From a virus (taxonomy: Duplodnaviria > Heunggongvirae > Uroviricota > Caudoviricetes), in IMG/VR virus record IMGVR_UViG_2925939204_000002: a DNA stretch of 31,902 nucleotides; one strand, written 5' to 3'. Shown here one piece after another: positions 8,322 through 28,093 of the stretch. Positions within the stretch are counted from its first letter, which is position 1; the number at the start of each line of letters is the position of its first letter. The position numbers and the translations under genes are program-made. The notes under the pieces were generated by a model. It ran no database searches. It was given only the letters and a program-made list of their open reading frames with translations, and had not been told where the DNA came from.

Positions 8322-8330
8322 GGCAATATC

Positions 8331-8780
8331 ATGATGATGATTCTGGGGATGTTCCCCTTTTCACTGCAAACCACACCTTACCAGAGTGCGAATAAAACCA
8401 ACTCCTGGCGGCACGTCAAAAACGATCGCGTGGGGAAATCCCCGCGCTATCAGTTCATCGGCGCAGATGAAGAACCGTTCGTACTCAGCGGCACGCTGTA
8501 CCCCGAAATAAGCGGCGGTGATGTGTCGCTTGTCATGCTGGAAACTATGGCTTTTTCCGGGCGCCCGTGGCCCCTGATAGAAGGCACGGGCAGGATCTAC
8601 GGCATGTATGTAATTGAGCAGATCACGCAAAACCGGACGGAGTTTTTTAAGGACGGGAAGGCAAAGAAAATTGATTTCACGCTCAACCTGAAACGGGTAA
8701 GCGAGGACATACGGGAAAAGCTGGCTGAAACCACTACCGACGATCTCTTCTCTCTGGTGAAAACCAACCTTTCGATATAA
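8331..8780 (+). CDS. Tail protein U (P2 gpU family)
   Basis: 149-aa product immediately after T; N-terminus MMMILGMFPF. Confidence 0.8.
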   Translation: MMMILGMFPFSLQTTPYQSANKTNSWRHVKNDRVGKSPRYQFIGADEEPFVLSGTLYPEISGGDVSLVMLETMAFSGRPWPLIEGTGRIYGMYVIEQITQNRTEFFKDGKAKKIDFTLNLKRVSEDIREKLAETTTDDLFSLVKTNLSI

Positions 8781-8784
8781 GAAA

Positions 8785-8811
8785 AGCGGGCCATTGCCCG
8801 CTTCGTCTTCC
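8785..8811 (+). terminator. Candidate terminator of the tail operon
   Basis: agcgggc-catt-gcccgct hairpin starting 5 nt after the U stop, followed by a U/C-rich tract. Confidence 0.45.
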
Positions 8812-8832
8812 GTAATACACAACCATAACTGA

Positions 8833-8889
8833 CCGTGCTACAGCACCGTTAAAAGTGACCGTACTCGATACACACGGCCAGCACGGTTA
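8833..8889. repeat. Copy A of a ~57-bp structured intergenic repeat
   Basis: 42 of 48 core positions identical to 15461-15508, plus cgtgct upstream; contains 12-bp palindrome gtgct-ac-agcac and conserved tcgatacacacggccagcacggtta; abuts the invertase stop. Confidence 0.5.
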
Positions 8890-9468
8890 TAACCGGCCAT
8901 GCGTGCCGGAATTCTTATCTCTGGTCGCTGGGAATTTTTTGTAAAGCGTAGATATCCCAACATCATAAATTATGGCAACCCTCCGGCGCGATTCCCCTGC
9001 CGCTATTAACCTACCCGCCTGCGCCCATTGTTCTGGTGTTAGTTTTGGACGTCTACCGCCGATCCTTCCCTGCGCGCGAGCGGCCACCAGTCCTGCACGC
9101 GTACGCTCGACAATCAATTCTCTCTCCATCTCTGCCAGTGCTCCCATAACATGAAAAAAGAAACGCCCCATTGGTGTTGAGGTATCAATACTGTCCGTCA
9201 GGCTGCGGAAGTTCACGGAACGTTGCTTTAGTTCCTCCACCAGAATGACCAAGTTCCGCATACTCCGCCCAAGACGATCCAGCTTCCAGACAACAAGCGT
9301 ATCTTCTGGAGAAAGGCGCTTTAGTAATTTTTTAAGCCCTGGCCTTTCCGCTGTTCTCCCGCTCATTTTATCTTCAAAAATTAGCTCACATCCTGACCGC
9401 TCAAGCGCATCACGTTGCAAAGCCGTGTTCTGGTCATTTGTTGATACGCGCACATATCCAATAAGCAT
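8887..9468 (-). CDS. Site-specific DNA invertase, Hin/Gin/Pin/Cin-family serine recombinase
   Basis: 193-aa product MLIGYVRVSTNDQNT...VVWKLDRLGRSMRNL...SPMGRFFFHVMGALAEMERELI, near-identical in motif content to Gin/Pin; catalytic Ser in the YVRVST context; C-terminal HTH. Confidence 0.9.
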   Translation of the reverse strand: MLIGYVRVSTNDQNTALQRDALERSGCELIFEDKMSGRTAERPGLKKLLKRLSPEDTLVVWKLDRLGRSMRNLVILVEELKQRSVNFRSLTDSIDTSTPMGRFFFHVMGALAEMERELIVERTRAGLVAARAQGRIGGRRPKLTPEQWAQAGRLIAAGESRRRVAIIYDVGISTLYKKFPATRDKNSGTHGRL

Positions 9469-9522
9469 GGTTTTTCATTCCTTTAAAACGATAAATCATG
9501 CCATTCGGCTAATAATTATGCA

Positions 9523-9548
9523 TTTTCAAAAACGTTCGTTTCGAACTG
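9523..9548. promoter_or_regulatory. Candidate invertase crossover site (hix/gix-like) immediately upstream of the invertase gene
   Basis: ttttcaaaaacg tt cgtttcgaactg: A-rich half-sites aaacg/cgttt around a 2-bp centre, resembling the GAAAACC-NN-GGTTTT core of hix/gix; positioned as gixR/hixR are relative to their recombinase genes. Confidence 0.3.
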
Positions 9549-9641
9549 GGGGGGGAGTGACGGGCTGTGAAGGGCGATGTTGCTCTGATGGAAAATTCCG
9601 GGTCTTGCTGATGCGTGTCGATACAGCAAAACCCGTATGGC

Positions 9642-9875
9642 TTACTCCTCTGGATAATGAGTAGGCGCATTATACTGACTGACGTACTCGTTAAGCTCCG
9701 GCGGGTATGTCACTTTTGCTGTATCTCGCTCTACGTTGAATGTATCCGCTCCCCAGATAACACACTCCCTCAAAAATGCCTCCACCTCTGGCGAGACTTC
9801 AACCGCATCATCAGGTCGCTCTTGTTCAGAAACATAAAAACCAACGGTCGTTGGGCTGAAATAGATATTCTCCAT
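9642..9875 (-). CDS. Tail fibre assembly (Tfa) chaperone-like protein, short form, probably truncated
   Basis: 77-aa product MENIYFSPTTVGFYVSEQERPDDAVEVSPEVEAFL resembles the conserved N-terminal domain of Tfa proteins, but the usual C-terminal domain is absent; lies between tail fibre H and the invertase. Confidence 0.5.
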   Translation of the reverse strand: MENIYFSPTTVGFYVSEQERPDDAVEVSPEVEAFLRECVIWGADTFNVERDTAKVTYPPELNEYVSQYNAPTHYPEE

Positions 9876-9877
9876 AT

Positions 9878-11134
9878 TTAGTATCCTATTGCTTCAAAAT
9901 GCAGTGTCGGTGTTTCGCCGAGATTGGGTGTCGTATACGCCACAGTGAATCGCGTTCTTGATACGTCAGTGCCAGAATCAGTATCGCGATGCGTTGCCAG
10001 TGATTTTCCGGCCATTGTTGCCTGGGTCGAATAGCTGTAACTCGCTAGTGTTGCCAGCGTTGCTATTTGTGCATTTGGGAATTGTCTGGGGAAATTAACC
10101 CTGTAGTAATGGGTGTAGTACGTCACCCCACCGAGCACCTGCGCGCTGAAGTTACCAACTGGTGTCAGTGTCACAGTGCCAGCCTGTCGAATCATACCAT
10201 TTGGGAGAATATCCCAGGCAGTTTGTCCGTTTCGCGACATACCAAATGCGGACATGTCCGGGAGTTGATTATTACCGGTTCCCACGTCCCTTTTTGCCGC
10301 TTCTCCCAATTGAAGGTTTTGTAGAAAAACAGAAACGTTTTCTATGTCTGAACCATTTGCCGATTTATCCATCTTTCCAGCGAGTGAATTTGTTACGGTG
10401 GTAGCAAAGTTAGGATCATTACCCAAAGCCGCAGCAAGTTCATTCAGCGTATCCAGCGCTTCAGGCGAAGAGCCAACCAAAGCAGCAATAGCAGCCTGAA
10501 CGAAAGCTGTATTTGCAATTTGAGTAGAACTATCTTTGCCTTCCGCCGTTGGCGCAGTCGGCCTGCCAGTAAGAGCGGGACTTTCTTTTGGTGCGTATTG
10601 TTTATGCGGATCAGCCGCAGCTACATGCGCTGCCATTTTCTGATCAACATAGCTTTTCACCTGGATGATCTGATCATCAACATACTGTCGGGTTGCCAGA
10701 ACTACCGAAGGGTCAATTTTCAGCGTTACGGCAGCGGTGCTGCTGACAATCAGGATCATGCGTACAACCTGTACGCGCCCGCTTCCCTCCTGTAACTGCG
10801 GCTTATACGTTTCCGCACAGTTGGCTACGGCAATCATATCGCCGTCTTTATCGAATAAACCGATTTCACGGATCCACCACCCGCCCTCGTCTTCAGGTAT
10901 CACCTGCTCGGCAATAATCTGGTTGGCGTTATTCGGGTCAATGCTCAGACTATTAAGCGGCTTGCGGCGCAGCTCATGAACCAGCGCCGTTTGTGCCGGG
11001 TTCGGCGTCGGCAACACGCCGTTACCATCGCCTACAGCCATCTGGGTGATTTCAACCTGCGCACCCAATGCCGTGGCATTTGCCAGTTTCGCCGCGCCCA
11101 CATTGGTTAGCACGGCATAATATTTAGTCGCCAC
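9878..11134 (-). CDS. Tail fibre protein (P2 gpH family), about 418 aa from GTG start
   Basis: N-terminal region ATKYYAVLTNVGAAKLANATALGAQVEITQMAVGDGNG...SGRVQVVRMILIVSS matches the conserved gpH N-terminal domain; GTG at 11134-11132 overlaps the gpI stop. Confidence 0.85.
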   Translation of the reverse strand: MATKYYAVLTNVGAAKLANATALGAQVEITQMAVGDGNGVLPTPNPAQTALVHELRRKPLNSLSIDPNNANQIIAEQVIPEDEGGWWIREIGLFDKDGDMIAVANCAETYKPQLQEGSGRVQVVRMILIVSSTAAVTLKIDPSVVLATRQYVDDQIIQVKSYVDQKMAAHVAAADPHKQYAPKESPALTGRPTAPTAEGKDSSTQIANTAFVQAAIAALVGSSPEALDTLNELAAALGNDPNFATTVTNSLAGKMDKSANGSDIENVSVFLQNLQLGEAAKRDVGTGNNQLPDMSAFGMSRNGQTAWDILPNGMIRQAGTVTLTPVGNFSAQVLGGVTYYTHYYRVNFPRQFPNAQIATLATLASYSYSTQATMAGKSLATHRDTDSGTDVSRTRFTVAYTTPNLGETPTLHFEAIGY

Positions 11135-11738
11135 TTGCGATCTCCACGGTGTCAATTAAATGGATTGCCGCCCCGGTGTAATCATCACCGCCCACGGCTA
11201 TGGTTTCAGGAAAATACGGGTACACGGTTAGCGTATCGCCGGAATAACTGCCCGCGCCGATATACAGATCGCCGGTTGTTTGCAGGTGAAGAGACATTCC
11301 CAGCATATGACGGCTGCACGGCTTCACATCGGCGATCAGGCGTTCAAGTTCCTGATAGGTTTCTTCACTAATGCCCTGGTCTTCCACGCCAATATCCAGC
11401 GTGAAGGTGCCCGGTGCGGTGTCGATGTTCCACCACTCGTTAACCCGGATGAAGAAGCCGAACGGCTCCACAACCCGGCGCATGGCGCCCGTTGTACCCT
11501 TGTACTTATGCAGGTAAAACGCATCGGCCACTGCCTTTCGTTTTGTGTTTATCGGCCAGGCCTCATCCCAGCGATCAACGGAGAAGGCCCACGCCAGATA
11601 GGGCAACAGATCAGCCCGACACGTCCACGGGTTCCACAACTGGCGCAGCGGCACGGGCACTTCACCCAACGACGCACAGACGCGCGCGGCGACGCGCTCC
11701 ATTCGGCTGGCGCTGGGTGGTAACAGGTCATTACTCAT
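11124..11738 (-). CDS. Baseplate/tail protein I (P2 gpI family)
   Basis: MSNDLLPPSASRMERVAARV N-terminus; ATG at 11738 overlaps the J stop (ATGAGTAA arrangement). Confidence 0.85.
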   Translation of the reverse strand: MSNDLLPPSASRMERVAARVCASLGEVPVPLRQLWNPWTCRADLLPYLAWAFSVDRWDEAWPINTKRKAVADAFYLHKYKGTTGAMRRVVEPFGFFIRVNEWWNIDTAPGTFTLDIGVEDQGISEETYQELERLIADVKPCSRHMLGMSLHLQTTGDLYIGAGSYSGDTLTVYPYFPETIAVGGDDYTGAAIHLIDTVEIASGD

Positions 11739-12642
11739 CGTAACCACCCACCGTTATGGTGTATTCGGTGCAGTGCGATGCCTGGTAGTCACTCAGCACA
11801 ATATCCGCAACAGGCCGCGCCAGTTCCACGCGCTGGACGCCTTCGACGTGCAGGGCGGCGTAGATAGCTGAAAGACGGATATCGCGCCCTAAGCGATTCT
11901 GCGCGGCAATATACGCCTGTAACTGCTGTTCCGATGCCTGCCGGACGGGTTCAGCTTCCGGCCCCGGATAGATGTAAAGCGTTGCATCAATCTGATACGG
12001 CACGATCTCCGCAGACTGCACCGTTACCCTGTCGGCCACCGGGCGCACTTCTTCATCGTTCAGGGCAGCAGCGACCACGGAAAGCAGATCATCGCTGGCC
12101 GTTCCGTCACCTTCGCGCGACAGCACCGAAATGGTGACGCAGGCAGGCGTAGGACTCACCGCCGAAATATCAGCTACGCGCCCGTCTGCTGAACGCCCCC
12201 AAAATTCATACGCCGCAGTTGGCCCGGCCACGCTCAGACCTTCAAAAGCCTGCTGGGTACGCGTGCGTAAATCTGGGTCTGACTCCATCACGGCTTCAAT
12301 TGGCGGTGTAACGCTGTCGTCTTCTTCCTGAATGGTCAGACGTTCAACGTTGAAATTGACCGCCAGATTATCCAGATCGCTATCCGTGGAATAAGCCAGC
12401 ATCACCGCGCGGGCTGCTTCATTCACCCGCTGGCGCAACAGCAATTCGCGATAGCAATTCTCTTCCAGCAGCATGGTGATCGGCTCCGATTCAAGCTCAA
12501 GCGTGCGGGCGATCTCTTCCTGCTCGTCTTCCGGGTACATCGCAATAAATGCCGCCTTGCGCTGCGCGAAAAGCGTTTCGAAGTCCAGCGGTTCAACCAC
12601 CACGGGCGGCGGTAGCTGCGATAAATCGATCGTGCCGCTCAT
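11731..12642 (-). CDS. Baseplate assembly protein J (P2 gpJ family)
   Basis: 303-aa product, size and position between W and I. Confidence 0.9.
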   Translation of the reverse strand: MSGTIDLSQLPPPVVVEPLDFETLFAQRKAAFIAMYPEDEQEEIARTLELESEPITMLLEENCYRELLLRQRVNEAARAVMLAYSTDSDLDNLAVNFNVERLTIQEEDDSVTPPIEAVMESDPDLRTRTQQAFEGLSVAGPTAAYEFWGRSADGRVADISAVSPTPACVTISVLSREGDGTASDDLLSVVAAALNDEEVRPVADRVTVQSAEIVPYQIDATLYIYPGPEAEPVRQASEQQLQAYIAAQNRLGRDIRLSAIYAALHVEGVQRVELARPVADIVLSDYQASHCTEYTITVGGYDE

Positions 12643-13001
12643 GCCTGGCCCCTCAATGTAATATCAGCGTTAAATGGCGTCTGATTGTCGGTGCGATTGG
12701 CCTGGATAGTGGCAACCAGCCGACCGGCACCCGGCGCGCTCAGGGTGATACTGGTCAGAGAGATCCGCGGTTCCCATAAATACAGGGCGCTGTAGATGGC
12801 AGACATAACGCGCAGCTTCGTTATGGCGTTATCGACCGGCTGATCTATCAGGTTGAAAAGCTGCGAACCGTAAGCGCGGCGCATTACACGGGAACCGATC
12901 GGCGTTAACAGAATATCGCCGATAGACTGCGCTATATGCTCGTTGTCGGTGATGGCATGGCCTGAACTGGCATTCATGCCGCTGTAACGGACTGTACTCA
13001 T
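12639..13001 (-). CDS. Baseplate protein W (gp25-like)
   Basis: 120-aa product between V and J, translationally coupled. Confidence 0.85.
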   Translation of the reverse strand: MSTVRYSGMNASSGHAITDNEHIAQSIGDILLTPIGSRVMRRAYGSQLFNLIDQPVDNAITKLRVMSAIYSALYLWEPRISLTSITLSAPGAGRLVATIQANRTDNQTPFNADITLRGQA

Positions 13002-13627
13002 ACCGGGCCACCTGTATTACTACCACCGGACTGGACGCCGCTATGTTTGTGAGAATGGACAACGACACCATTAGACGAAAGCGATCCGCCTGAATGGGTA
13101 ATATTGCCCTTCATTTCCCCGCCCTTTTGCACTTCCAGCGTGGCGGTGATCAGCTTGTTGGTGCAGACCACTTCCGGCGTGTCCAGGGTAACGCGCGTAT
13201 CTGCCTTGACCGTTACCACCGGCACGGTGGCGGTAATGGATTCCGACGCGGTGACGCTTGCCGTTTTTACCCCGCTGACAACCAGCGCGCTGGCCTCCGG
13301 GTCATATGAAATACGGGCGCCATCCGGGTGCAGGATCACGCAGGTGGTAGCGCCAGCATCTGGCGGCGGTGCGTCTTTGCTGTAAAGGCTTCCGGCAATG
13401 AATGCCGTCTCCAGCTCACCGCAGGGGCACAAAATATAAACCTGTTCGCCCACTGTCGGCGCCCACCACGTCACGGCTTCACCGGCGCGCGGCACTGCCC
13501 AGCGGATCCAGTCGGTTTTGTTCTCGCCGGTTTCGACGCGTGCAAGATACTTTTCCGTATCCACTTCCAGCACGGTGCCAATGCGGGCGAGATTGCAGAT
13601 AAGGCGATAGAGTTCGTTTAAATTCAT
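12998..13627 (-). CDS. Baseplate spike/assembly protein V (P2 gpV family)
   Basis: 209-aa product MNLNELYRLICNLARIGTV; first gene after the S-V intergenic region. Confidence 0.85.
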   Translation of the reverse strand: MNLNELYRLICNLARIGTVLEVDTEKYLARVETGENKTDWIRWAVPRAGEAVTWWAPTVGEQVYILCPCGELETAFIAGSLYSKDAPPPDAGATTCVILHPDGARISYDPEASALVVSGVKTASVTASESITATVPVVTVKADTRVTLDTPEVVCTNKLITATLEVQKGGEMKGNITHSGGSLSSNGVVVHSHKHSGVQSGGSNTGGPV

Positions 13628-13765
13628 AGTGCTGACTGTTTCCCGTGGTGCCGGTTACGCTGTCCGGCGTCGTTTCCACCCGGTAGCAGGCTTTACGACC
13701 GTTTCGGCTTTTGGGTTATGCAGTCAGTATCAGGAGTCGCGCGCGCGCAAACAACGCGGCGCCCT

Positions 13766-13783
13766 TGTGGCGGGTTGGTGACA
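13766..13783. promoter_or_regulatory. Candidate Ogr-binding dyad of the V-operon late promoter
   Basis: tgt ggcgggttggtg aca is an exact TGT-N12-ACA located between the S stop (13785) and the V start (13627). Confidence 0.45.
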
Positions 13784-13784
13784 A

Positions 13785-14429
13785 TCAAATCTCTTGCATG
13801 AAGGCGACAACAGTATCGACCAGCCAGTCTAAATCCCCCTCGGTCATGCCCAGGAGTTCACGCACCGGGTAGCGTGCACGGGCACCCGGCACCACGTTAT
13901 CGACTTCACCGTACTGGTGAACGCTGGCAATTTCGGCGGTATGCCCCTGAAAGCCAACCACTGCCATGCCGCCCGTACCGTAAGCCTTAAGAAAGCGTGC
14001 GGTGCGCAGCTTGCGGAACATCGGATCCTTTCTGGTGCGGTTTTGCTTTGACTGGTTGAGATTGATTTCAATATAGCGCTGGATATCGCGCTTATAGAAC
14101 GTGCGCAGGGCACCGCGATCAACGTCATAGCCGGTGATTGCGCGGTGCTCACCCCTGCCCGTGGTTCGCCAGTTGCGTAACTCCCTGGCCTCATCATTCC
14201 ATACGAATTTTATCCCGCCCTGGGTGCGCAGAATTTTGCGGCGGCGGGCCTGATAGCTTTCACCGCTGGGGTTCTTCTGGCTGGCGATACGCTTTTGCTG
14301 GCGCTTACGCAGCCCGATCGCAACGTCGCGCGTCAGCTTGCGACGGTGTCCGGGCGAAAGCTGCGCGGCAACGCTGGCTAACCAGTCGTCTAACTGCTGG
14401 AAGAGGGGATCGGTTTGTTGTCCTGCCAT
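13785..14429 (-). CDS. Virion morphogenesis / tail completion protein (gpS-like)
   Basis: 214-aa basic product between R and V, overlapping R by 40 nt; position equivalent to P2 gpS. Confidence 0.7.
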   Translation of the reverse strand: MAGQQTDPLFQQLDDWLASVAAQLSPGHRRKLTRDVAIGLRKRQQKRIASQKNPSGESYQARRRKILRTQGGIKFVWNDEARELRNWRTTGRGEHRAITGYDVDRGALRTFYKRDIQRYIEINLNQSKQNRTRKDPMFRKLRTARFLKAYGTGGMAVVGFQGHTAEIASVHQYGEVDNVVPGARARYPVRELLGMTEGDLDWLVDTVVAFMQEI

Positions 14430-14884
14430 GTTTCGCCGCTGACCTCATCAACAAATACCAGTGACCACGCGCCAATTTCCGGCCCCGGTGCAGGGTCAGC
14501 ACGGTGACGGGTGACGATCTCGCCATCTTCACGGGTGACGATCACCGCTTCATCAGCCTGAATCTGGATCAGTACGTCCATCGTGCTGTTACTCAGAATA
14601 TCGGCTTCGAATGTTATGCCGTTCTGCTGCCTGTCCGGGTTAAACAACAGATCAGGCTGATATAAGCGCGCCCATGCCAGCACCGGCACGCTGATAGTAT
14701 CCAGAGATTCAGGGTAATCCATCACCAGCACTTCCAGCGTATAGCGATACTCAAACGCAGCAGCACGCTGGCCGGTGCTGACCATACGACCTTTTCGCAG
14801 ATAAACCGCCAGATTATCGGGATTTTCGCGCAGCCAGGGCACATGCTGGCTTATCATCTGGCGCAGTAAATCGGGTTTAAGCAT
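14390..14884 (-). CDS. Tail completion protein R (P2 gpR family)
   Basis: MLKPDLLRQMISQHVPWLRENPDNLAVYL ... VPVLAWARLYQPDL resembles P2 gpR; TAATG coupling to the upstream spanin gene. Confidence 0.8.
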   Translation of the reverse strand: MLKPDLLRQMISQHVPWLRENPDNLAVYLRKGRMVSTGQRAAAFEYRYTLEVLVMDYPESLDTISVPVLAWARLYQPDLLFNPDRQQNGITFEADILSNSTMDVLIQIQADEAVIVTREDGEIVTRHRADPAPGPEIGAWSLVFVDEVSGETWQDNKPIPSSSS

Positions 14885-20167: not shown

Positions 20168-21880
20168 ATGAATACAGCCGAAGACCTCAGCACAAAAGCC
20201 AAAAGCCTCTACTGGCAGGCGTTTAGCATCACTCAGATTTCTAAGGAAATCGGGGTGAGCATTAACACGATCTACAGTTGGCGCCGCCGCTATGAATGGG
20301 ATAAAGCTACCCCCATGCAGCGGGTGCAGGATCGCACGCACGTTCGTTACCTGCGCCTGGTGGAAAAGGACGACAAAACCCCGAAGGACTTTAAAGAAAT
20401 TGACCTGCTGGCGCGCCAGCTTGACCGCTTTGAACGGCATGAGCGACGCGACCAGGAGAAAGAGAAGAAGGCGAAGACCCCGAAAAACCATTTCACCGAA
20501 GAACAGATAACTCAGCTTCGCGCCCTGATCTTTGATTCGCTATACGAGCATCAAAAACGCTGGTTCAAACAGTGGAACCGGCGTAACCGCTTTATCCTCA
20601 AATCGCGCCAGATTGGTGCCACCTGGTACTTTGCCCGCGAAGCGCTGTTGCGTGCGCTGGAAACCGGAAATAATCAGATATTCCTGTCAGCCAGCCGCGC
20701 CCAGGCGTTCCAGTTCAAGCGGTTCATTCAGAAGCTGGCAAGGGAAATAGGAGTAGAACTTAAGGGCGGTGATGCCATTGAGTTAAGCAACGGTGCGATC
20801 CTGTATTTTCTCGGCACCTCCGCCGCGACGGCCCAGAGCTACACCGGCGATCTGTACCTTGATGAAGCCTTCTGGATCAGTAATTTCATCAAACTGCGCT
20901 CGGTGGCCGCAGGCATGGCGACACAAAAAGGACTGCGCCGCACCTACTTTTCGACGCCTTCCAGTGAAGAACATGAAGCCTATCCCTTCTGGACTGGCGA
21001 TCAGTTCAATGAAAGCCGCCGCCGATCCGATCGGGTGGATATCGACACCAGTTATAAGGCACTGAAAAACGGCAAGCTATGCGGGGATAACATCTGGCGC
21101 CAGATAGTCACGCTGGAAGACGCCATGAAGCTCGGTTTCGATCTGGTTGATATTGATGAAATCCGTAGCGAAAACTCCCTTGACGAATACGCCAACCTGT
21201 ACGGATGTACCTTCGTTAAAGCAGGGGAACGCGCCTTCGACTACAACACAATTTTGGGCTGCGGCGTTGATGGCTACATGCCGGACGCGTGGCCGGACTG
21301 GAACCCGTTTGCACCTCGCCCGCTGGGTAATCGCCCTGTCTGGGTTAGCTATGACCCCAACGGCAGCAGCGGCAAAGGCGACAGCGCCGGGCTGGTTGTG
21401 CTGGCCCCGCCAGCCGTGCCGGGTGGCAAGTTCCGCGCGGTAGAACGCCACCAGTTACGCGGCATGGAGTACGAAGAGCAGGCCAAATTTATTAAAGAGA
21501 TCACCACCCGCTACAACGTGCAGCACATTGCTATCGACGGCACAGGGATCGGCGATGCGGTTTATCAACTGGTGATCAAGTTCTTCCCGCAGGCGGTTAA
21601 ATACAACTATTCACCGGTTCTTAAGCGGTCGATGGTGCTCAAAATGTTGATGGTCATTCGTGCCGGGCGCTTTGAGTTCGACGCCGGAATGATGGATCTC
21701 GCACAGTCGTTTATGACCGTGCGTAAAGTCACCGCAGGCGGCGTTATTACCTACCAGTCCGATCGGGCCCGTGGCAGCAATCACGGCGATCTGGCATGGG
21801 CAACTATGCAGGGCATTTACAACGAACCGATCGGCGCGGAAGTGACCGGCGATAACGGCAGTTTTGTGGAGGAGTTTTAA
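20168..21880 (+). CDS. Terminase large (ATPase) subunit P (P2 gpP family)
   Basis: 570-aa product with N-terminal HTH-like region; divergent from O as in P2. Confidence 0.9.
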   Translation: MNTAEDLSTKAKSLYWQAFSITQISKEIGVSINTIYSWRRRYEWDKATPMQRVQDRTHVRYLRLVEKDDKTPKDFKEIDLLARQLDRFERHERRDQEKEKKAKTPKNHFTEEQITQLRALIFDSLYEHQKRWFKQWNRRNRFILKSRQIGATWYFAREALLRALETGNNQIFLSASRAQAFQFKRFIQKLAREIGVELKGGDAIELSNGAILYFLGTSAATAQSYTGDLYLDEAFWISNFIKLRSVAAGMATQKGLRRTYFSTPSSEEHEAYPFWTGDQFNESRRRSDRVDIDTSYKALKNGKLCGDNIWRQIVTLEDAMKLGFDLVDIDEIRSENSLDEYANLYGCTFVKAGERAFDYNTILGCGVDGYMPDAWPDWNPFAPRPLGNRPVWVSYDPNGSSGKGDSAGLVVLAPPAVPGGKFRAVERHQLRGMEYEEQAKFIKEITTRYNVQHIAIDGTGIGDAVYQLVIKFFPQAVKYNYSPVLKRSMVLKMLMVIRAGRFEFDAGMMDLAQSFMTVRKVTAGGVITYQSDRARGSNHGDLAWATMQGIYNEPIGAEVTGDNGSFVEEF

Positions 21881-22930
21881 TTGAGCGGCAAAAAAAAATT
21901 CAGGGCGCCAACTGCTGCGCCAGCCAGCACGGCCAGCAACGCAGCCACCCCGCTGGAAAGCGTGGAATCTTTCAGCTTTGGCGACCCGATCGCAGTCAAC
22001 GATCGCGCGTCTCTTATGGAGTGCCTCGAATGCCATAACAATGGCCGCTGGTATGAACCACCGATCAGCCCCTACGGGCTGGCGCGCATGTTCGACGTTG
22101 CCGCCTATCACCAGTCACCGCTGATATTTAAACGCAATGTTATCGCCAGTTGCTACATACCGCACCCGCTGTTGACCCGGCAGGAGTTCACCGCCTGGGT
22201 GCAGGATTATTTAATTTTCGGTAACTGTTACATGGAATGCCGCCGCAACCGACTCGGCCAGCCGATCGAGCTGCGGCACAGCCAGGCAAAATATACGCGG
22301 CGCGGCATAGACCCGGCGCAATTCTGGTTTGTTCCGCGCTACGTTGACGATCACGCGTTCGAACCGGGCAGCGTCTGCCAGATCAAGAACCCCAGCCCGC
22401 ACCAGGAGATCTACGGTGCGCCGGAATATCTGGCCGCGCTACAAAGCGCCATGCTGAACGGTGAAGCAACGGTGTTCCGCCGCAACTACTACATTAACGG
22501 CAGTCATGCGGGTGTGATCGTCTACCTCACTGACCCGGTGGCGAATAATAACGATGTGGAAAAGCTTAAGAAGTCGCTGAAAGATGCACGCGGCAACGGT
22601 GCTTTTAAAAACCTGTTTGTCTACGCGGCGGGCGGGAAAAAAGACGGCCTGCAAATTATGCCGTTCAGCCAGGTGGCGGCGAAGGATGAGTTTACCGGCA
22701 TCAAAGACGCCACCCGCGACGACCTGTTAGCCGCGCACCGCGTGCCGCCCGTTCTGATGGGGGTAATGCCGAATAACTCCGGTGGCTTCGGCGACGTAGA
22801 GAAAGCGGCGAAGGTGTTTTCCATCAACGAACTGGCCCCGATACAAGAAAGCCTGAAAGAGTTAAACGACTGGCTGGGGATCGACGTGGTGCGCTTCAAC
22901 CCTTACGCACTGTTGCAGGCAGCAATCTGA
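21881..22930 (+). CDS. Portal protein Q (P2 gpQ family)
   Basis: 349-aa ORF beginning at TTG directly after the P stop; last gene before cos; exact start codon uncertain. Confidence 0.85.
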   Translation: MSGKKKFRAPTAAPASTASNAATPLESVESFSFGDPIAVNDRASLMECLECHNNGRWYEPPISPYGLARMFDVAAYHQSPLIFKRNVIASCYIPHPLLTRQEFTAWVQDYLIFGNCYMECRRNRLGQPIELRHSQAKYTRRGIDPAQFWFVPRYVDDHAFEPGSVCQIKNPSPHQEIYGAPEYLAALQSAMLNGEATVFRRNYYINGSHAGVIVYLTDPVANNNDVEKLKKSLKDARGNGAFKNLFVYAAGGKKDGLQIMPFSQVAAKDEFTGIKDATRDDLLAAHRVPPVLMGVMPNNSGGFGDVEKAAKVFSINELAPIQESLKELNDWLGIDVVRFNPYALLQAAI

Positions 22931-23000: not shown

Positions 23001-23038
23001 AGCCCCTCAGCAGCCTGCTGGCAGGGGCTTTTCTTTTT
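23001..23038 (+). terminator. Rho-independent terminator after Q
   Basis: agcccct ... aggggct stem followed by ttttctttttcc. Confidence 0.55.
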
Positions 23039-23140
23039 CCTCAACCCACCACGGCGAACCGAAAACGACGCAGCAGCGAGGCGCAGCGGCGCGAAAATCG
23101 GCGCAGATAATACCGACCCTATCCCACCCCTCAGCGCGCG

Positions 23141-23159
23141 CTCATTCCCCCGCCTCGCC
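23141..23159. other. Candidate cos site (cohesive-end sequence)
   Basis: ctcattcccccgcctcgcc is the reverse complement of GGCGAGGCGGGGGAATGAG, closely resembling the P2 cohesive end as I recall it (GGCGAGGCGGGGAAAGCAC); located just beyond Q as in P2. Confidence 0.5.
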
Positions 23160-23413
23160 CGCACGCAGAAACCCCGCTTTTTTGTGCAAATGTGCAGACC
23201 ACCGGAAGGCCCACCCCGCCTGGTCTGCCCTGAGAAAATCACCATCATAAAATTTGTGCAATTTTGCTCCAATTTGTGCGTTGAATTCTGAACGTCTAAA
23301 GCTCATTTTTTTCTAAGCAAAATGGACGAAAATAAGCCAATCATGTATAGATAACGCCATGAACCGTAATAGTATTTATTGCAACTAACTATGACAATTT
23401 AGAAGGAACCGTT

Positions 23414-24526
23414 ATGGACGTTTATGTTTATGCTGATGAATCTGGACATTCAGGTCGCAATATTTTTGACGAGAGATCACCGACATACTTTCAGGGGGCG
23501 ATAATCTCTCATGGTGACGTTGATCCTATCATTAACGAAGTTGTCCAGCGGCACTGCAAGGCTTTAGGCGTTCCGCGTCTTCACTCAAATGAACACCAAG
23601 AGCATGTTGTTTCAGTAATTTGCTCAGATCTTCTTGATGCACTTGAAAATACCTCTTGGGAATTTTCACTCTGCGTTATTCACAAACCTTATCTCGCACC
23701 AACCAAGTTTGTTGATCTGTTTTTTGATAGTGCTGATAATCCTGGCGTCCCGGTCTTGTGGTACAACACCGAATTATTTAGACATGCTATGTGCTTAGGT
23801 ATGGCAGATATCTTGTCCGATGAAGATAACAAGGCTTTTTGGGATGGTTTCCTGAGCGACGACATGCCAAAAATGCTTCAAGTTGCGGAAATTGCACTTT
23901 CAAGAATTGACCGCATACTAGATCCGCGAATGAAAGAAGTTATGACTGATGGTTTAACTTACGCGATCAGCCACCCTGACGAATTCACCTTAATTTGTAC
24001 CCATGGGAAAAGCGCCTACAAAGGCCAAACGCCTAATATGGTTGCTTTTTCTAGTCTGATGGGGGCTACACATTCTTTCTGTAAAAAGCATTCCTCTTCC
24101 GTAAAAGAATTGATCCATGACAGAAGCGACGAGTTTCGCGGGACGATGAGAGAATATCACCGCATTTTTCATAAAATCGATCATGTAGAGGACGATTTGG
24201 GGGGCCCAATTCTTTTTGAGGAGGCTCAATTCGATTTAGGTAAATTCGATCTTCGAAGTTCAGAAAGTCATCCAGCGCTGCAAGCTGTAGATGTTTTTTT
24301 GTGGATGCTGCAAAGAGACTTGATTACTGATGAAGGAAAAAAAGCTCTAGAACGACTAAAAAAACATCTCAATGATTTCGTGATATCTCCTTCCATGTCT
24401 CAGTTGATTGTAAGGGCACGTACATATCAACTTAACAGTAAACCTCTTTCATCTGAACAGTTCAAAGCGGGAAGAAAATTTTCTGCTCAGTTAGAAGCTA
24501 AACGACAGAAGCGTTTGAGAAGATAA
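23414..24526 (+). CDS. Hypothetical protein, 370 aa, AT-rich moron in the cos-proximal hotspot (P2 old/tin position); candidate defence gene
   Basis: ATG at 23414 with gaagga RBS; AT-rich codon usage; N-terminal YVYADESGHSG motif (reminiscent of DUF3800-type proteins, unverified); no P-loop seen; flanked by terminators. Confidence 0.7.
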   Translation: MDVYVYADESGHSGRNIFDERSPTYFQGAIISHGDVDPIINEVVQRHCKALGVPRLHSNEHQEHVVSVICSDLLDALENTSWEFSLCVIHKPYLAPTKFVDLFFDSADNPGVPVLWYNTELFRHAMCLGMADILSDEDNKAFWDGFLSDDMPKMLQVAEIALSRIDRILDPRMKEVMTDGLTYAISHPDEFTLICTHGKSAYKGQTPNMVAFSSLMGATHSFCKKHSSSVKELIHDRSDEFRGTMREYHRIFHKIDHVEDDLGGPILFEEAQFDLGKFDLRSSESHPALQAVDVFLWMLQRDLITDEGKKALERLKKHLNDFVISPSMSQLIVRARTYQLNSKPLSSEQFKAGRKFSAQLEAKRQKRLRR

Positions 24527-24542
24527 TTAAAACATACCCATA

Positions 24543-24570
24543 AATGGCGCCTCATGGCGCCATTGCTTTT
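24543..24570. terminator. Bidirectional hairpin terminator between the convergent 370-aa gene and gene A
   Basis: aatggcgcc-tcat-ggcgccatt perfect 9-bp stem followed by gctttt. Confidence 0.5.
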
Positions 24571-24576
24571 GGCTAA

Positions 24577-26946
24577 TTATATCTCATTTAATAAATGGCC
24601 CTTAAACGCTGCCTTCATCCTGTTCACAAGGTCGCTTGTCTTTTTCTTCGCTGCCATCACCTGTGACGGCAGCTTATCCAGCCCGGATGCGGCGCGGTTG
24701 CGCGATACCAACCGCCCGTCCTGCACGGTCATAACAAGATCACCGCACGCCACTGACGCACCGGCCATCATCGATCTGACCATTCCGGCGCTTGCATCAA
24801 TCCCACGTAGCGCCAGCAGTTCACTGATCTGCTGCTCTTTGACTGATAGCCCTGCTTCCTCTTCCCATTCCGGTGGCCGCGTTTTCCGCTTGGCGCGTAC
24901 ATCGTCACTTAATCGCTGCGCCAGTTCCCGCTTTTCTTGCCGTGAAAGAGCATCAAAATTCACCGTCTCGCCCACTTCGTGATCGGCATGTTCAAGACCG
25001 TCAGCACCTGTTGCGGGATCCCGCGTACAGTTATTGACAGAACTCCGAGGGGCGGCGCTGCCGCCTGAAAAACCAACGTCAACGGCCACACCGTCAGCGC
25101 TCTGGCGCTTCGGCACGATTTTGTATTTAGTGGTGCGGGTGAAGATCAAAGAGTCATTGCCCGTAATCGGGCAATAGATACCGGTGATTCGCTGGACGTT
25201 ATCGCCGTAGGCGTTGCCGTTTTCAGTGGTTTCATAATTCAGACGGATGCGCAGCTTATCGCGCTCAACCAACGGGCCACCCTGGGCTAATACGTAGTTA
25301 TCCCATTCGCCACCGTTAGCGGCCTGCCGGGCGGTTTCCAGTTCAGGGTGTAACACCAGTTCGCGATCGCCCAGGCGGCGAAGTTCGCGATATACCGTGA
25401 CCGGTGCACCGCCGATCTGCTGAAACTGACGAATAGCCCAGCGCGATGCCCACGCGCTAACGCGGAGTGACATTTCTTTCAGGTCTTCCCCGGTTTCGTC
25501 GTCCTTCTCACCATCCAGCGCGAAGCCGTCGATATTCTTCGAAATGTATTTCGCTATGTAGCCGGTTGCGCTGCCGTGGGCATCATCGATCGGCACAACC
25601 TGAAAGCGGTTTTCCTGCGCTCCCGGTTCGTTGCCGTCTTCTTTCAGGGCATATTTACGGAAGATTTCGCGCGCCTGCTCGACGCATTCCGGGCGCATAA
25701 AAAGAAGTAAATGCCAGTGTGGCGTTGCATCGTGGTGCGGTTCGACCACGCGAAAACCAAAGACGCGGATCCCTTTTCTCTTCCACGCTGCGCGGGTTCT
25801 CGCCCAGACTTTGCAAAGATATTGCTGCGTCTCGCGCGGCGATGCGCCACAGTATTTATTATTGCGGCGCCCGTTATGCTGCATGGAGTGGTAACGGGAA
25901 GGTGCTGTCAGCGTGTAGAAGTCACCGGCCAGCCCTTCCAGCTTCGCCAGATCTTCAAATCCGCGCATTCTCGTCATGAGTTCGCGGCGACGGTTGGCCG
26001 GATTGGCAACACTACCGGCGACTTTATCGATCAGTGAAATGCGTTCGCCCGTGTCCTGGTCTTCCAGTTCCATAGCCTTAAGGTATTCACGGTTAGCCTT
26101 TTTTTGGGCCAACCATTCCGTAAGGCACGGGGCGCTACTGTATGGGAAAGATTTTTTCTGGACGTATCCCGCAGCGATCATCAAATGCTCACGCCACCGG
26201 GCATGGATACGGCGCAGGCGGTTTAACCACCACTGCGGTGACTCAAGGCGAAGAACCGCGCGTAACGCGTCCTCCGCTTCCAGTTCTTCATTGCAATACG
26301 CCGTCCAGCCGGGGATCGGAGTTTTCAGATGCACCGCCAGCGACGCAATACGGCCATAGCCAGAAAGCGCCGCGAACTCAGGATCTCCGGTGCGTGCCAA
26401 TTGGTGATCGGACTCGCGTATAAACTCGCTCGTAAAGATATCGGCAAGCGTATAAGCCAGTCTTTTTAACTCTTTCTTCCCTGCCCAGAGCATACGGAAC
26501 AGCTGATCGCGGATTGGCAGCAGAATGCCGGGCATCACAGTGTCAGGCTGGTAAACACTGTTCACACTATCAATTCGCGTTAATACGTGGCGCTCAAAGG
26601 TATTAACCAGCCAGTGATCTGCCGCTTTGCGGTCTTTCGCGTCCAGTGCATCCAGCTTCGCGGCAAAGTGGCGGCGGATATACTGCGGAAGTGAAGCCAG
26701 ACGGCGACGCAGCAGCTTGCTGCGCTCCGGCTTTTCGTCTTCCGCTACCAGTTCACTGAACGCAATATGCTTACGCGTGCCGTCCGGCGTGAGATAGTCG
26801 AAACCATCCAGCCCCGGCGCTACATCAACGCCAATAGGCTGGTATGGTTTGTTTCCCCCATAAGCGTAAGGGATAGCATTGTCAGTGCTACCCGGATACG
26901 GTGGAGGTGGAGAAGGGGCGCGACGGCCACGGGTTTCCGTGGTCAT
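24577..26946 (-). CDS. Rolling-circle replication initiator A (P2 gpA family, HUH endonuclease)
   Basis: 789-aa product with PHWHLLLF (HUH motif) and TGYIAKYISK (catalytic Tyr region). Confidence 0.9.
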   Translation of the reverse strand: MTTETRGRRAPSPPPPYPGSTDNAIPYAYGGNKPYQPIGVDVAPGLDGFDYLTPDGTRKHIAFSELVAEDEKPERSKLLRRRLASLPQYIRRHFAAKLDALDAKDRKAADHWLVNTFERHVLTRIDSVNSVYQPDTVMPGILLPIRDQLFRMLWAGKKELKRLAYTLADIFTSEFIRESDHQLARTGDPEFAALSGYGRIASLAVHLKTPIPGWTAYCNEELEAEDALRAVLRLESPQWWLNRLRRIHARWREHLMIAAGYVQKKSFPYSSAPCLTEWLAQKKANREYLKAMELEDQDTGERISLIDKVAGSVANPANRRRELMTRMRGFEDLAKLEGLAGDFYTLTAPSRYHSMQHNGRRNNKYCGASPRETQQYLCKVWARTRAAWKRKGIRVFGFRVVEPHHDATPHWHLLLFMRPECVEQAREIFRKYALKEDGNEPGAQENRFQVVPIDDAHGSATGYIAKYISKNIDGFALDGEKDDETGEDLKEMSLRVSAWASRWAIRQFQQIGGAPVTVYRELRRLGDRELVLHPELETARQAANGGEWDNYVLAQGGPLVERDKLRIRLNYETTENGNAYGDNVQRITGIYCPITGNDSLIFTRTTKYKIVPKRQSADGVAVDVGFSGGSAAPRSSVNNCTRDPATGADGLEHADHEVGETVNFDALSRQEKRELAQRLSDDVRAKRKTRPPEWEEEAGLSVKEQQISELLALRGIDASAGMVRSMMAGASVACGDLVMTVQDGRLVSRNRAASGLDKLPSQVMAAKKKTSDLVNRMKAAFKGHLLNEI

Positions 26947-27122
26947 ATTTGAACTACATCCCCTACTTTAACGGCTTTGGCTTCCTCTTCTGATTTCTTC
27001 AGAATTGTGGTTATTGACTCCCTTCCATAAGCTGTTACTTTCGCCTCAACCAACCAATACGGCACAATCTCGCCGCAACTCACGCTTATGATTTCAACGA
27101 TCCAGGCGTCTATAAGATTCAT
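26943..27122 (-). CDS. Small hypothetical protein (59 aa) translationally coupled between dam and A
   Basis: Hand translation MNLIDAWIVEIISVSCGEIVPYWLVEAKVTAYGRESITTILKKSEEEAKAVKVGDVVQI; its ATG overlaps the dam stop and its TGA overlaps the A start codon (ATGA). Below the ORF-track size cut-off. Confidence 0.35.
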   Translation of the reverse strand: MNLIDAWIVEIISVSCGEIVPYWLVEAKVTAYGRESITTILKKSEEEAKAVKVGDVVQI

Positions 27123-28093
27123 TAAAAAGCCTCCTGATCGTCAAACTCGCCCGCCGCAACCATCGCGTTGTAAGTCGCATCACCCATCACGGCGCCACAA
27201 TCAGGGCAACCGCCGCCATAACGCCCGCAGCAGTCGCAGACAGGCAGCACGCCGATCACTTCTTTGGCCTTCTGCCGGTTGTCTTTGTTGGTGCTGACGG
27301 AACGTTGCACGCTGATTTCGTGCATCTTGAAGGGCTGATAAATCGCGCGGGTGGCTTCGGTGTCGCTGTTGGAAATGACGACCTTCACGCCATGCTTACG
27401 GTTAACTTCCAGCAGTGCCTGGACTAACTGGCGGTGGTTGTCTTCCGTGAATGGTTCGGTGTGGTATTGGGTAAAATCGGCTGTTTTGCTTTCAGGCAGG
27501 TAAGGCGGATCGCAGTAAACGAGAACATCGCCACCCGTGACGACCTGTAGAGAACGCTGGAACGGCGCGCAAAGAAATATTGCCTTTGTATCGTTGGCCT
27601 TTTCGGCAAACAGGCATATTTCATTTTCAGGAAAGTAGACGCTCTTATACTTGCCAAACGGCACGTTAAAGCCGGTCTTCCGGCTGTATCGGCATAAGCC
27701 GTTATAGCCGTGGCGATTCAGATACAGGAATTGAGCAGCGCGCATAATGCACGCCATTTCAGCGACATAACGCAACCCACCGCTTTTTACCGTACCCACC
27801 TGCTTATTGAACGCGGCGCGGACTTCGTTGTATCCCTGCGGGCTGTTCTTACTGTTGAACAGTTCGCGGGCCGCATCGATCACTAAGTCCGGGTAACGAG
27901 TGACTTCCCGATACAGGTTAATAAGGTCCGGGTTGATATCAGCCAGCACATAGCGGCGGTATTCAGTCGCCAGAAATACCGATGCTCCGCCTACGAACGG
28001 TTCGATCAGGCAGTCGGCTTTAGGAAGATGCGGCAGCAGGTCAGGGAGGACACGGGTTTTACCCCCTGCCCATTTGATGAACGGGCGGATCAT
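27122..28093 (-). CDS. DNA adenine (N6) methyltransferase, Dam family, with Cys-rich C-terminal extension
   Basis: 323-aa product; FVGGASVF AdoMet-binding region and DPPY catalytic motif; C-terminal CDCCGRYGGGCPDCG cluster. Confidence 0.85.
   Translation of the reverse strand: MIRPFIKWAGGKTRVLPDLLPHLPKADCLIEPFVGGASVFLATEYRRYVLADINPDLINLYREVTRYPDLVIDAARELFNSKNSPQGYNEVRAAFNKQVGTVKSGGLRYVAEMACIMRAAQFLYLNRHGYNGLCRYSRKTGFNVPFGKYKSVYFPENEICLFAEKANDTKAIFLCAPFQRSLQVVTGGDVLVYCDPPYLPESKTADFTQYHTEPFTEDNHRQLVQALLEVNRKHGVKVVISNSDTEATRAIYQPFKMHEISVQRSVSTNKDNRQKAKEVIGVLPVCDCCGRYGGGCPDCGAVMGDATYNAMVAAGEFDDQEAF

Follow-up and report, generated by a model that had tools for sequence, protein, structure and literature searches.

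A stand-alone DUF3800 gene in the portal/gpA hotspot of a P2-like prophage as a candidate RNase H2-like defence nuclease

What is a single AT-rich gene doing between the cos site and the replication gene A of a P2-like prophage? We addressed this question with IMG/VR virus record IMGVR_UViG_2925939204_000002, a stretch of 31,902 nucleotides (nt) that is referred to below as the window, in which the gene concerned encodes a 370-amino-acid protein of the DUF3800 family. An earlier note on the same DNA had put this gene forward as an undescribed single-protein system of anti-phage defence or exclusion. We concluded that the cassette carrying it (about 23290-24576) amounts to an accessory gene, or 'moron', that is self-contained, was acquired horizontally and occupies the portal/gpA hotspot, and that its product is predicted from the modelled structure to be a stand-alone nuclease of the DUF3800 family, metal-dependent and built on a core resembling that of type-2 RNase H. 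That the protein serves as a stand-alone RNase H2-like defence or exclusion nuclease is the explanation we favour, as a somewhat probable one; the evidence that carries it, and the alternatives against which it has to be weighed, are given below.

The DUF3800 protein and its predicted nuclease fold

The earlier note had likened the N-terminal motif YVYADESGHSG (residues 4-14) to DUF3800-type proteins, and profile searches bore this out. The Pfam family DUF3800 (PF12686) matched with 23.4 bits, above its gathering score of 21 (E = 1.1e-4), and residues 4-301 aligned onto profile positions 1-148 of 149; that a model of 149 positions covers 298 residues is due to an all-helical insertion at residues 91-226. 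All four testable features of the family were present, namely the match to the family hidden Markov model, the N-terminal DE motif, the C-terminal QxxD motif and an RNase H-like fold; DE and QxxD are the signatures of DUF3800 proteins (Mestre et al. 2020, PMC7736814). We found 122 homologues of about 375 amino acids that aligned from end to end, most of them carrying a precomputed PF12686 match, with identities of 88% in Serratia, 76% in Salmonella, 67% in Yersinia, 63% in Morganella, and 38-49% in Vibrio, Aeromonas and marine gammaproteobacteria. When 1.84 billion cluster representatives were searched exhaustively with a profile, 898 relatives passed E <= 1e-3; the 233 that also passed E <= 1e-30 were nearly all stand-alone proteins of about 375 amino acids. 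The gene is under strong purifying selection across hosts: the ratio of nonsynonymous to synonymous substitution rates (dN/dS) was 0.045 between the E. coli and Serratia copies, and in other pairs of copies, where synonymous sites were saturated, the proportion of nonsynonymous differences (pN) was 0.17-0.27.

An AlphaFold2 model built from a 41-sequence alignment was of high confidence (predicted local distance difference test, pLDDT, 92.2; predicted template modelling score, pTM, 0.89), and the closest folds among its structural matches were RNases HII, H2A and HIII, not transposases. Conservation was counted in an alignment of 238 full-length relatives with 20% to 98% identity to the query. 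In the first motif, D8, G11 and G14 were each present in 237/238 sequences and E9 in 235/238, and in the model D8-E9 terminate strand beta-1 (residues 3-10). H235 (230/238) and D236 (234/238) stand at the end of strand beta-4 (230-236), and the QxxD motif, with Q290 in 229/238 and D293 in 238/238, places D293 on helix 287-300. The four catalytic carboxylates of RNase H sit at fold positions like those of D8/E9, D236 and D293, and an adjacent D-E pair plus a glycine-rich turn is the type-2 RNase H arrangement. By this model D8, E9, D236 and D293 would be the equivalents of the RNase H catalytic carboxylates, and the 370-amino-acid protein is probably an active nuclease.

Two additions, the insertion of about 135 residues (91-226) and about 70 residues of C-terminal helices (301-370), distinguish this subfamily from short DUF3800 proteins. 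Within the insertion K91, D105, N109, R123, W143, R172 and N208 are near-invariant, several of them basic or aromatic (K91 in 238/238 relatives, D105 in 235/238, N109 in 237/238 and N208 in 236/238), and H57 is invariant as well (238/238).

Searches by sequence gave a different kind of answer. Profile search of PDB sequences yielded no match, to an RNase H or otherwise, NCBIfam yielded none, and PHROGs gave one weak family to which no function is assigned. Hhalign against an approximate sequence of E. coli RnhB gave a probability of 0.05; with Pfam, the PDB profile search and hhalign all lacking a match, membership of the RNase HII sequence family was rejected. No characterised non-defence homologue, which would have spoken against the earlier note, emerged from Pfam, the PDB sequence search or NCBIfam. 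None of the 5,027 defence models of PADLOC 2.0, which include Old, Tin and the PD-, Rst- and PDC- candidates, matched at E <= 1. The note's view that the protein is neither Old-like nor Tin-like was thus upheld, and identity with a known system (Old, Tin or another modelled one) was rejected on the PADLOC, NCBIfam and PHROGs results together.

A variable cassette in the portal/gpA hotspot

The position of the gene is, as the earlier note had supposed, the published portal/gpA hotspot of P2 (PMC9519451; PMC9122126; 10.64898/2026.02.27.708500), the main P2 defence hotspot according to Rousset et al. 2022 (PMC9122126) and to a 2026 survey of 1,511 P2 elements (10.64898/2026.02.27.708500). We aligned the locus with three E. 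coli prophages that share its backbone, TOK-001, 730V1 and 1332KP, two of which encode the identical portal WP_000014576.1 and the third a near-identical one. Backbone homology was near-perfect to about 23230, was lost by about 23290 and returned at the gpA stop (24577-24595). In the same slot TOK-001 carries a DNA adenine methylase and a hypothetical gene, 730V1 a pseudogene fragment, and 1332KP a hypothetical gene and an ImmA/IrrE peptidase; the cargo differs even behind the identical portal protein, which is the variability across related prophages that the note had asked to see. Among 5,426 complete E. coli genomes only 5 contained the DUF3800 cassette. Matches to 23160-24576 occurred in 23 E. 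coli genomes in all, the others sharing the first 75-120 nt or so, which are backbone, and each genome with the gene had one copy of it. A tblastn search of 50,697 INPHARED phage records found no match to the DUF3800 protein, IMG/VR yielded an identical copy and one distant relative and nothing more, and BFVD yielded two distant metagenomic DUF3800 proteins and nothing more.

The cassette is compositionally foreign. G+C content was about 0.41 over 23200-24600 against 0.55-0.60 on either flank, and the shift in codon usage described in the earlier note was clear at third codon positions, where G+C (GC3) was 0.364 in the DUF3800 gene against 0.662 in P, 0.709 in Q, 0.597 in A and 0.633 in dam. 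In all six hosts examined the gene was AT-rich relative to its flanks (G+C 0.36-0.42 against 0.47-0.54).

Insulation of the gene on both sides, as the note had described it, was also found (Table 1). The hairpin after portal gene Q is kept in the three related prophages and is a backbone element, which shields the cassette from late transcription. The hairpin after the DUF3800 gene, with its perfect 9-bp stem (predicted RNA fold -19.2 kcal/mol, z = -4.1; 0/200 shuffles folded equally well), is absent from those prophages and so belongs to the cassette, not to the backbone; that it works in both directions is plausible from the sequence, because gene A ends just beyond it on the opposite strand. 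The start codon is preceded by a ribosome-binding site whose CAGAAGGAA is kept in the Serratia copy. The autonomous promoter claimed for the gene could not be confirmed: a consensus scan of the region upstream found no plus-strand site with at least 9/12 matches, and the best permissive match, at 8/12, is the weak candidate listed in Table 1, of which the TATAGATAAC segment is kept in the Serratia copy.

To the left of the cassette lies the cos core, invariant or nearly so in TOK-001, 730V1 and 1332KP, at the place where the note had put it. Its reverse complement opens with GGCGAGGCGGGG, which we take to be the first 12 nt of the P2 cos site. Right of the core there are two pairs of direct repeats, 23148-23171 / 23214-23237 (CCCCGCCTSG...) and 23181-23195 / 23253-23267 (TTTGTGCAAWTKTGC), with a spacing of about 66-72 nt, both kept in the related prophages; they are probably accessory terminase/cos recognition sites of the backbone.

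Comparison of loci showed how little besides the gene travels with it. In a blastn comparison of six loci (two from E. coli and one each from Serratia, Salmonella, Yersinia and Morganella) DNA similarity was confined to the coding sequence (CDS), beginning 13 nt 5' of the ATG in the closest pair and ending within the CDS. Neighbouring genes differed in every locus examined, and the similar-sized open reading frames 3' of several copies (Vibrio and Catenovulum loci) bore no relation to each other; a conserved partner protein was accordingly rejected. A conserved cis-encoded partner RNA was rejected as well, since Rfam scans were empty of relevant matches and blastn showed only the CDS conserved: the whole window gave no gathering-level Rfam match, a permissive scan around the gene (E <= 10) gave chance-level matches only (E 4-7), and the Rfam-curated DUF3800-I to -XI, drum and skipping-rope motifs were all missing from the neighbourhood of the gene.

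The settings of the copies are correspondingly diverse. The Serratia copy lies at the edge of a CP4-57-like island, the Salmonella copy in an integrative and conjugative element (ICE) directly after AbiEi/AbiEii, and the Yersinia copy in a P2-like prophage after ogr, with 30 nt between ogr and the ATG. In Morganella the gene sits between RusA and the small terminase of a lambdoid prophage, in Vibrio alginolyticus next to the integrase at the integrase-proximal end of a prophage, and in Aeromonas within a Mu-like tail module. Vibrio maritimus provides the clearest evidence for the gene as an independent functional unit: there it forms a single integron cassette with about 20 nt from attC to ATG. 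In that locus (L035) an array of attC-type repeats (a 137-nt family plus sub-families) extends over 7640-14808 between unidirectional small open reading frames and adjoins infC-rpmI-rplT and a truncated integrase; the array is that of a sedentary chromosomal integron, with the DUF3800 homologue among its cassettes. About 90 nt 5' of the gene are partly kept between the E. coli and Serratia copies. In the Serratia ficaria locus (L002) positions 7771-7826 form a 56-nt P2-type relic, 87.5% identical to window 23092-23147 and ending inside cos, and this relic and the partly kept upstream stretch suggest that the cassette reached the Serratia island from a P2-like hotspot.

A 355-amino-acid relative (70% identity) is far commoner in E. 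coli, with 24 contigs in 30 indexed blocks (P0010 lineage). It lies in another slot of a P2-like prophage, between ogr and gpD, with that prophage inserted next to thrS-infC-rpmI-rplT-pheST-ihfA, and is annotated merely as 'hypothetical' because precomputed Pfam gives no match.

Table 1. Features of the cassette, its gene and the surrounding backbone (window coordinates unless another locus is named)
Feature	Position	Strand	Remarks
DUF3800 gene, 370 amino acids, predicted RNase H2-like nuclease	23414..24526	+	ATG start
D8-E9-S-G-H-S-G14 codons, predicted first catalytic motif	23435..23455	+	End of strand beta-1; conservation and model
Helical-insertion codons, residues 91-226	23684..24091	+	Between beta-3 and beta-4; secondary structure
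H235-D236 codons, predicted third catalytic carboxylate	24116..24121	+	End of strand beta-4; conservation and model
Q290-A-V-D293 codons, QxxD motif, predicted fourth catalytic carboxylate	24281..24292	+	On helix; conservation and model
Exchangeable cassette: upstream region, DUF3800 gene and own terminator	23290..24576	+	About 1.29 kb, G+C about 0.41
Weak candidate sigma-70 promoter TAGATA-16-TAGTAT	23348..23375	+	8/12 consensus matches, permissive scan
Ribosome-binding site AGAAGGAA	23401..23408	+	6 nt 5' of ATG
Intrinsic terminator of the cassette	24543..24574	+	9-bp GC-rich stem and 4-nt loop (24543-24564), then T-rich tail GCTTTTGG; faces end of gene A
Terminase P	20168..21880	+	
Portal Q	21881..22930	+	Precedes hairpin region and cos
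Terminator-like hairpin and T-run after Q	23012..23038	+	Stem 23012-23029, then TTTCTTTTTC
cos core CTCATTCCCCCGCCTCGCC of P2-like backbone	23141..23159		Alignment to related prophages
Replication gene A	ends at 24577	opposite	
Vibrio maritimus copy (locus L035)	9001-10131 of L035		One-gene integron cassette; attC-type repeats 8869-8980 and 10132-10268

The window as a whole is a P2-like prophage; the identical locus in E. coli AR_0128 adjoins cpxP and is annotated with a complete P2-type gene set. Two other genes of the window deserve mention. The 193-amino-acid open reading frame at 8887-9468 (minus strand), beside the tail-fibre genes, corresponds to an AR_0128 gene annotated 'recombinase family protein' and is probably a Gin/Cin-type invertase that switches tail-fibre specificity. 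At 27122-28093 (minus strand) there is an intact 323-amino-acid open reading frame for a Dam-like methylase with a Cys-rich C-terminal tail, whereas its counterpart is listed as a partial pseudogene in the RefSeq annotation of both AR_0128 and 1332KP, which reflects either conservative annotation or an unusual fusion at the C-terminus.

Weighing a defence function

The earlier note could not tie DUF3800 to any defence mechanism. That statement is out of date, because published work already connects the family with immunity: type VII retrons are predicted to have DUF3800 as their RNase H2-like effector (PMC7736814), DUF3800 is an accessory at Cas12a2/Cas12a3 and type VI-F loci (PMC10910872, PMC12669027, 10.64898/2026.01.16.699850), and eleven unrelated RNA motifs associate with DUF3800 genes (PMC5737381). 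The supplements of DefensePredictor use DUF3800 as a label for retron VII. The family is less of an orphan than had been supposed.

The neighbourhoods of the gene point the same way. Among 21 informative loci outside this prophage, 13 had the gene in an accessory slot of a mobile element or had a defence gene within two genes of it. Six known or candidate defence genes lay within two genes of DUF3800 copies: AbiEi/AbiEii (in the Salmonella ICE), HEPN_AbiU2, a Type ISP restriction-modification enzyme and PDC-S06/AAA_13 (E = 0), upstream at 28 bp and 52 bp, respectively, UzuA of Uzume (E = 2.6e-55), 115 bp downstream, and a DUF6602/NucC-like (Damona-like) nuclease directly upstream. The DUF6602 domain is that of Damona, an integron-cassette defence that has been validated, and in the same study about 18% of tested V. 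cholerae cassettes of unassigned function protected against phages (10.1101/2024.07.02.601686); DUF3800 is not among the cassettes in its text or supplement.

How new the candidate is has to be stated with care. The protein itself was already on record: in their catalogue of P2-encoded loci (Table S5A), Rousset et al. 2022 (PMC9122126) enter this exact protein, WP_045355548, by itself and call it 'hypothetical'. A term search of the nine supplement files matched only Table S5, so neither WP_045355548 nor DUF3800 is among the systems in the tested-systems table of that paper. The term DUF3800 occurs 16 times in Table S5A (PMC9122126, supplement 6), and a different DUF3800 protein, WP_000654460, recurs there in 'StbA + DUF3800 + Plasmid_stab_B' P2 loci; P2 variable loci therefore host DUF3800 genes more than once. 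The accession WP_045355548 appears in no main text of the literature we searched, in which 18 papers mention DUF3800 and none of them deals with a stand-alone defence; that literature, the supplements of Rousset 2022 and of the integron-defence paper included, contains no test of any stand-alone DUF3800 protein. We regard the gene as a strong candidate for a new one-protein anti-phage system, and a defence function is what we infer from its sequence and its settings.

The mechanism we propose is the following. A lysogen would express the DUF3800 gene from the prophage, and the nuclease would cut a nucleic acid, protecting the cell or the population from other phages. The helical insertion (91-226) and the C-terminal helices (301-370) may recognise the substrate or a phage cue, and they may also keep the nuclease harmless in uninfected cells. 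Our leading guess for the substrate is an RNA-containing species, such as an RNA:DNA hybrid or R-loop formed as phages replicate, or a structured RNA, for instance tRNA, because the closest folds are type-2 RNases H and because relatives occur with retron msDNA (multicopy single-stranded DNA), with effectors guided by CRISPR RNA and with eleven structured RNAs. By analogy with other nucleases of the hotspot, abortive cleavage of tRNA or mRNA would be equally compatible, and the protein may clear the phage directly or act by abortive infection.

Several points weigh against a stand-alone defence nuclease. The catalytic residues were assigned from topology and conservation and not by residue-level superposition, and the similarity to RNase HII is undetectable by sequence with all three methods given above. 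No PADLOC model matched, not even those for the DUF3800 proteins of retron VII, and there is therefore no homology tie to any validated effector. Elsewhere the family partners a reverse transcriptase and msDNA, a Cas effector or one of 11 RNA motifs (PMC7736814, PMC5737381, PMC10910872), so that the competence of the protein by itself is something we infer, and no mechanism that would restrain the nuclease in uninfected cells was identified. The promoter of the cassette is a weak candidate and unproven. About one-third of the surveyed loci had no recognisable mobile-element or defence context, and the survey of 21 loci was no controlled test of enrichment. Disruption is apparent in two copies, in Rosenbergiella (L026, 10001-10791, open reading frames of 93 and 138 amino acids) and in Halomonas (L031, 10001-11034, 139 amino acids); broken into short open reading frames as they are, they are probably pseudogenes. 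Finally, the literature searched reports no phenotype for WP_045355548 or for any stand-alone DUF3800 protein.

A nuclease in this position could also act in the opposite sense and help the phage, by destroying a nucleic acid of host immunity; retron msDNA/msrRNA would be one example, a guide RNA or a signalling oligonucleotide another. The gene is phage-borne in many loci, the family is tied to retron and CRISPR nucleic acids, and the RNA:DNA part of msDNA would be a plausible target for an enzyme of RNase H type. Copies in non-phage settings, namely the chromosomal integron cassette and the ICE cargo beside AbiE, do not fit such a role, nor do the chromosomal copies beside Type ISP restriction-modification, Uzume and PDC-S06. 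The slot has been shown to house defence systems, with anti-defence genes in 28/1511 P2 elements (10.64898/2026.02.27.708500), and a gene that ends in a terminator of its own and is shielded from the late operon fits expression in the lysogen better than early lytic expression. We therefore consider counter-defence improbable.

A selfish role, in which the gene as a stabilising or toxic module aids the persistence of its cassette or carrier with no effect on phages, is similarly unlikely. Integrons, ICEs and prophages do bear addiction modules, ParDE and CbtA/CbeA lie near some copies, and the two disrupted copies would be expected if the gene were costly. No antitoxin-like partner gene or RNA is kept alongside, however, and the strong purifying selection across hosts argues in the same direction; moreover, the border with abortive-infection defence is blurry, as many such toxins are defence effectors.

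Could the protein be half of a two-component system whose nucleic-acid partner was overlooked? A structured or guide RNA might lie in the upstream region of about 120 nt or within the CDS, or be supplied by the host, and the eleven unrelated RNA motifs that go with DUF3800 genes (PMC5737381), the RNAs of the retron-VII and Cas12 associations and the partial sharing of about 90 nt 5' of the ATG by the E. coli and Serratia copies would all be in keeping with one. Against this, the Rfam scans found no family in the window and nothing beyond chance level around the gene when the threshold was relaxed to E <= 10, flanks are not kept beyond the closest relative, and the space upstream is short in the Yersinia and Vibrio copies (30 nt from ogr and about 20 nt from attC, respectively). 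A host-encoded partner RNA may still exist, but overall the chance of any such RNA seems to us small.

Less likely still is an enzyme of phage nucleic-acid metabolism, acting in primer or R-loop removal or ribonucleotide repair for replication of the carrier, or as a spare RNase H. The closest folds and the adjoining replication gene A would suit it. The gene is dispensable, however, since sibling prophages with the same backbone do without it, and copies in tail modules, at integrase-proximal ends, in ICEs and in integrons follow no replication logic. The want of sequence-level kinship to RNase HII, the 135-residue insertion and extra invariant residues, which would be unexpected in a housekeeping RNase H, and the foreign composition and own terminator all tell against it. 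A DDE-type transposase or homing nuclease moving its own gene would explain the scattered single-gene insertions, but this explanation is scarcely credible and was largely refuted, as no inverted repeats bracket the cassette, no element ends are conserved between the loci compared (similarity running from 13 nt 5' of the ATG to inside the CDS), each genome has one copy, the Vibrio copy is mobilised by integron attC sites and not by ends of its own, and the best structural matches are RNases H and not transposases.

The stand-alone defence nuclease thus remains the explanation we prefer. A bolder version of it, which we hold only tentatively and consider doubtful, is a complete one-protein immune system in which the core cuts an infection-specific RNA-containing intermediate and the helical insertion is a built-in sensor; its targets may be, for example, R-loops of phage replication, RNA-primed or ribonucleotide-bearing DNA, or structured RNA. 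If true, this would give the whole DUF3800 family a first function and would explain its pairing with retron msDNA, Cas12/Cas13 and the eleven RNAs, the RNA or msDNA being the ligand or decoy of the nuclease.

DUF3800 is a widespread family of undemonstrated function that recurs in immunity-related settings, and the 370-amino-acid subfamily is its simplest form, with one protein, no partner, a proven defence hotspot and E. coli as host. To a specialist it will be no surprise that cargo of this hotspot is a candidate for defence; the value lies in a cheap E. coli experiment on what would be the first function of DUF3800. Protection would mean a new single-gene defence with an RNase H2-type effector, a fold class unrepresented among the stand-alone systems of PADLOC 2.0, and would provide an experimental handle on the substrate of the family, the retron-VII effector and the DUF3800 RNA motifs; its size of 1.1 kb and its independence of partners would also suit use as a tool. 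Lack of protection would mean that the cargo of the hotspot is not always defence.

Comparison with known systems

With the effector of type VII retrons (PMC7736814) the protein shares PF12686, the N-terminal DE motif, a predicted RNase H2-like fold and an association with anti-phage immunity. The retron-VII proteins lack the conserved Q (PMC7736814), whereas the full QxxD is retained here, and unlike them this protein is about 370 amino acids long, has the 135-residue helical insertion and the C-terminal helices, and is encoded by a lone gene. Portal Q and gene A flank the gene here, where a retron would have a reverse transcriptase and msr/msd RNA; Rfam and PADLOC were negative, and no reverse transcriptase was seen beside the gene in the 21 other loci. 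With reverse transcriptase, msr/msd RNA and PADLOC match all missing, identity as a type VII retron was rejected.

The tetratricopeptide repeat (TPR)-DUF3800 accessories of Cas12a2/Cas12a3 and type VI-F (PMC10910872, PMC12669027, 10.64898/2026.01.16.699850) have the DUF3800 RNase H-fold nuclease domain and the immune context in common with it. Unlike them it stands alone and has no TPR domain, Pfam giving DUF3800 and nothing else. No cas genes were found in the window or the related loci, and no CRISPR array is present; lacking both TPR and cas genes, it was rejected as a CRISPR accessory. From type 2 RNases H (RNase HII, H2A and HIII) it differs by the large helical insertion and the invariant H57, K91, D105, N109 and N208, and whereas those enzymes are housekeeping, the DUF3800 gene here is accessory, mobile and AT-rich.

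P2 old and tin and the PD- and Rst- systems of the hotspot (PMC9122126, PMC9519451) occupy the same slot with the same moron-like organisation, are single-gene or very compact, and are often nuclease-based. Unlike them, the DUF3800 protein shows no homology (no PADLOC match) and has no ATPase or Toprim domain; Old, an ABC ATPase plus Toprim, is of a different fold class. Integron cassettes of the Damona (DUF6602) type (10.1101/2024.07.02.601686) are likewise compact, consist of one gene and have a nuclease fold, and there are further points of contact in that a Vibrio integron carries one relative of this protein as a cassette and another relative adjoins a DUF6602 gene; Damona belongs to a different protein family than DUF3800. 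Set beside all of these, the architecture described here is an undescribed one, a stand-alone DUF3800 protein in a compact nuclease cassette, placed in a known hotspot and drawn from a family with known immune associations.

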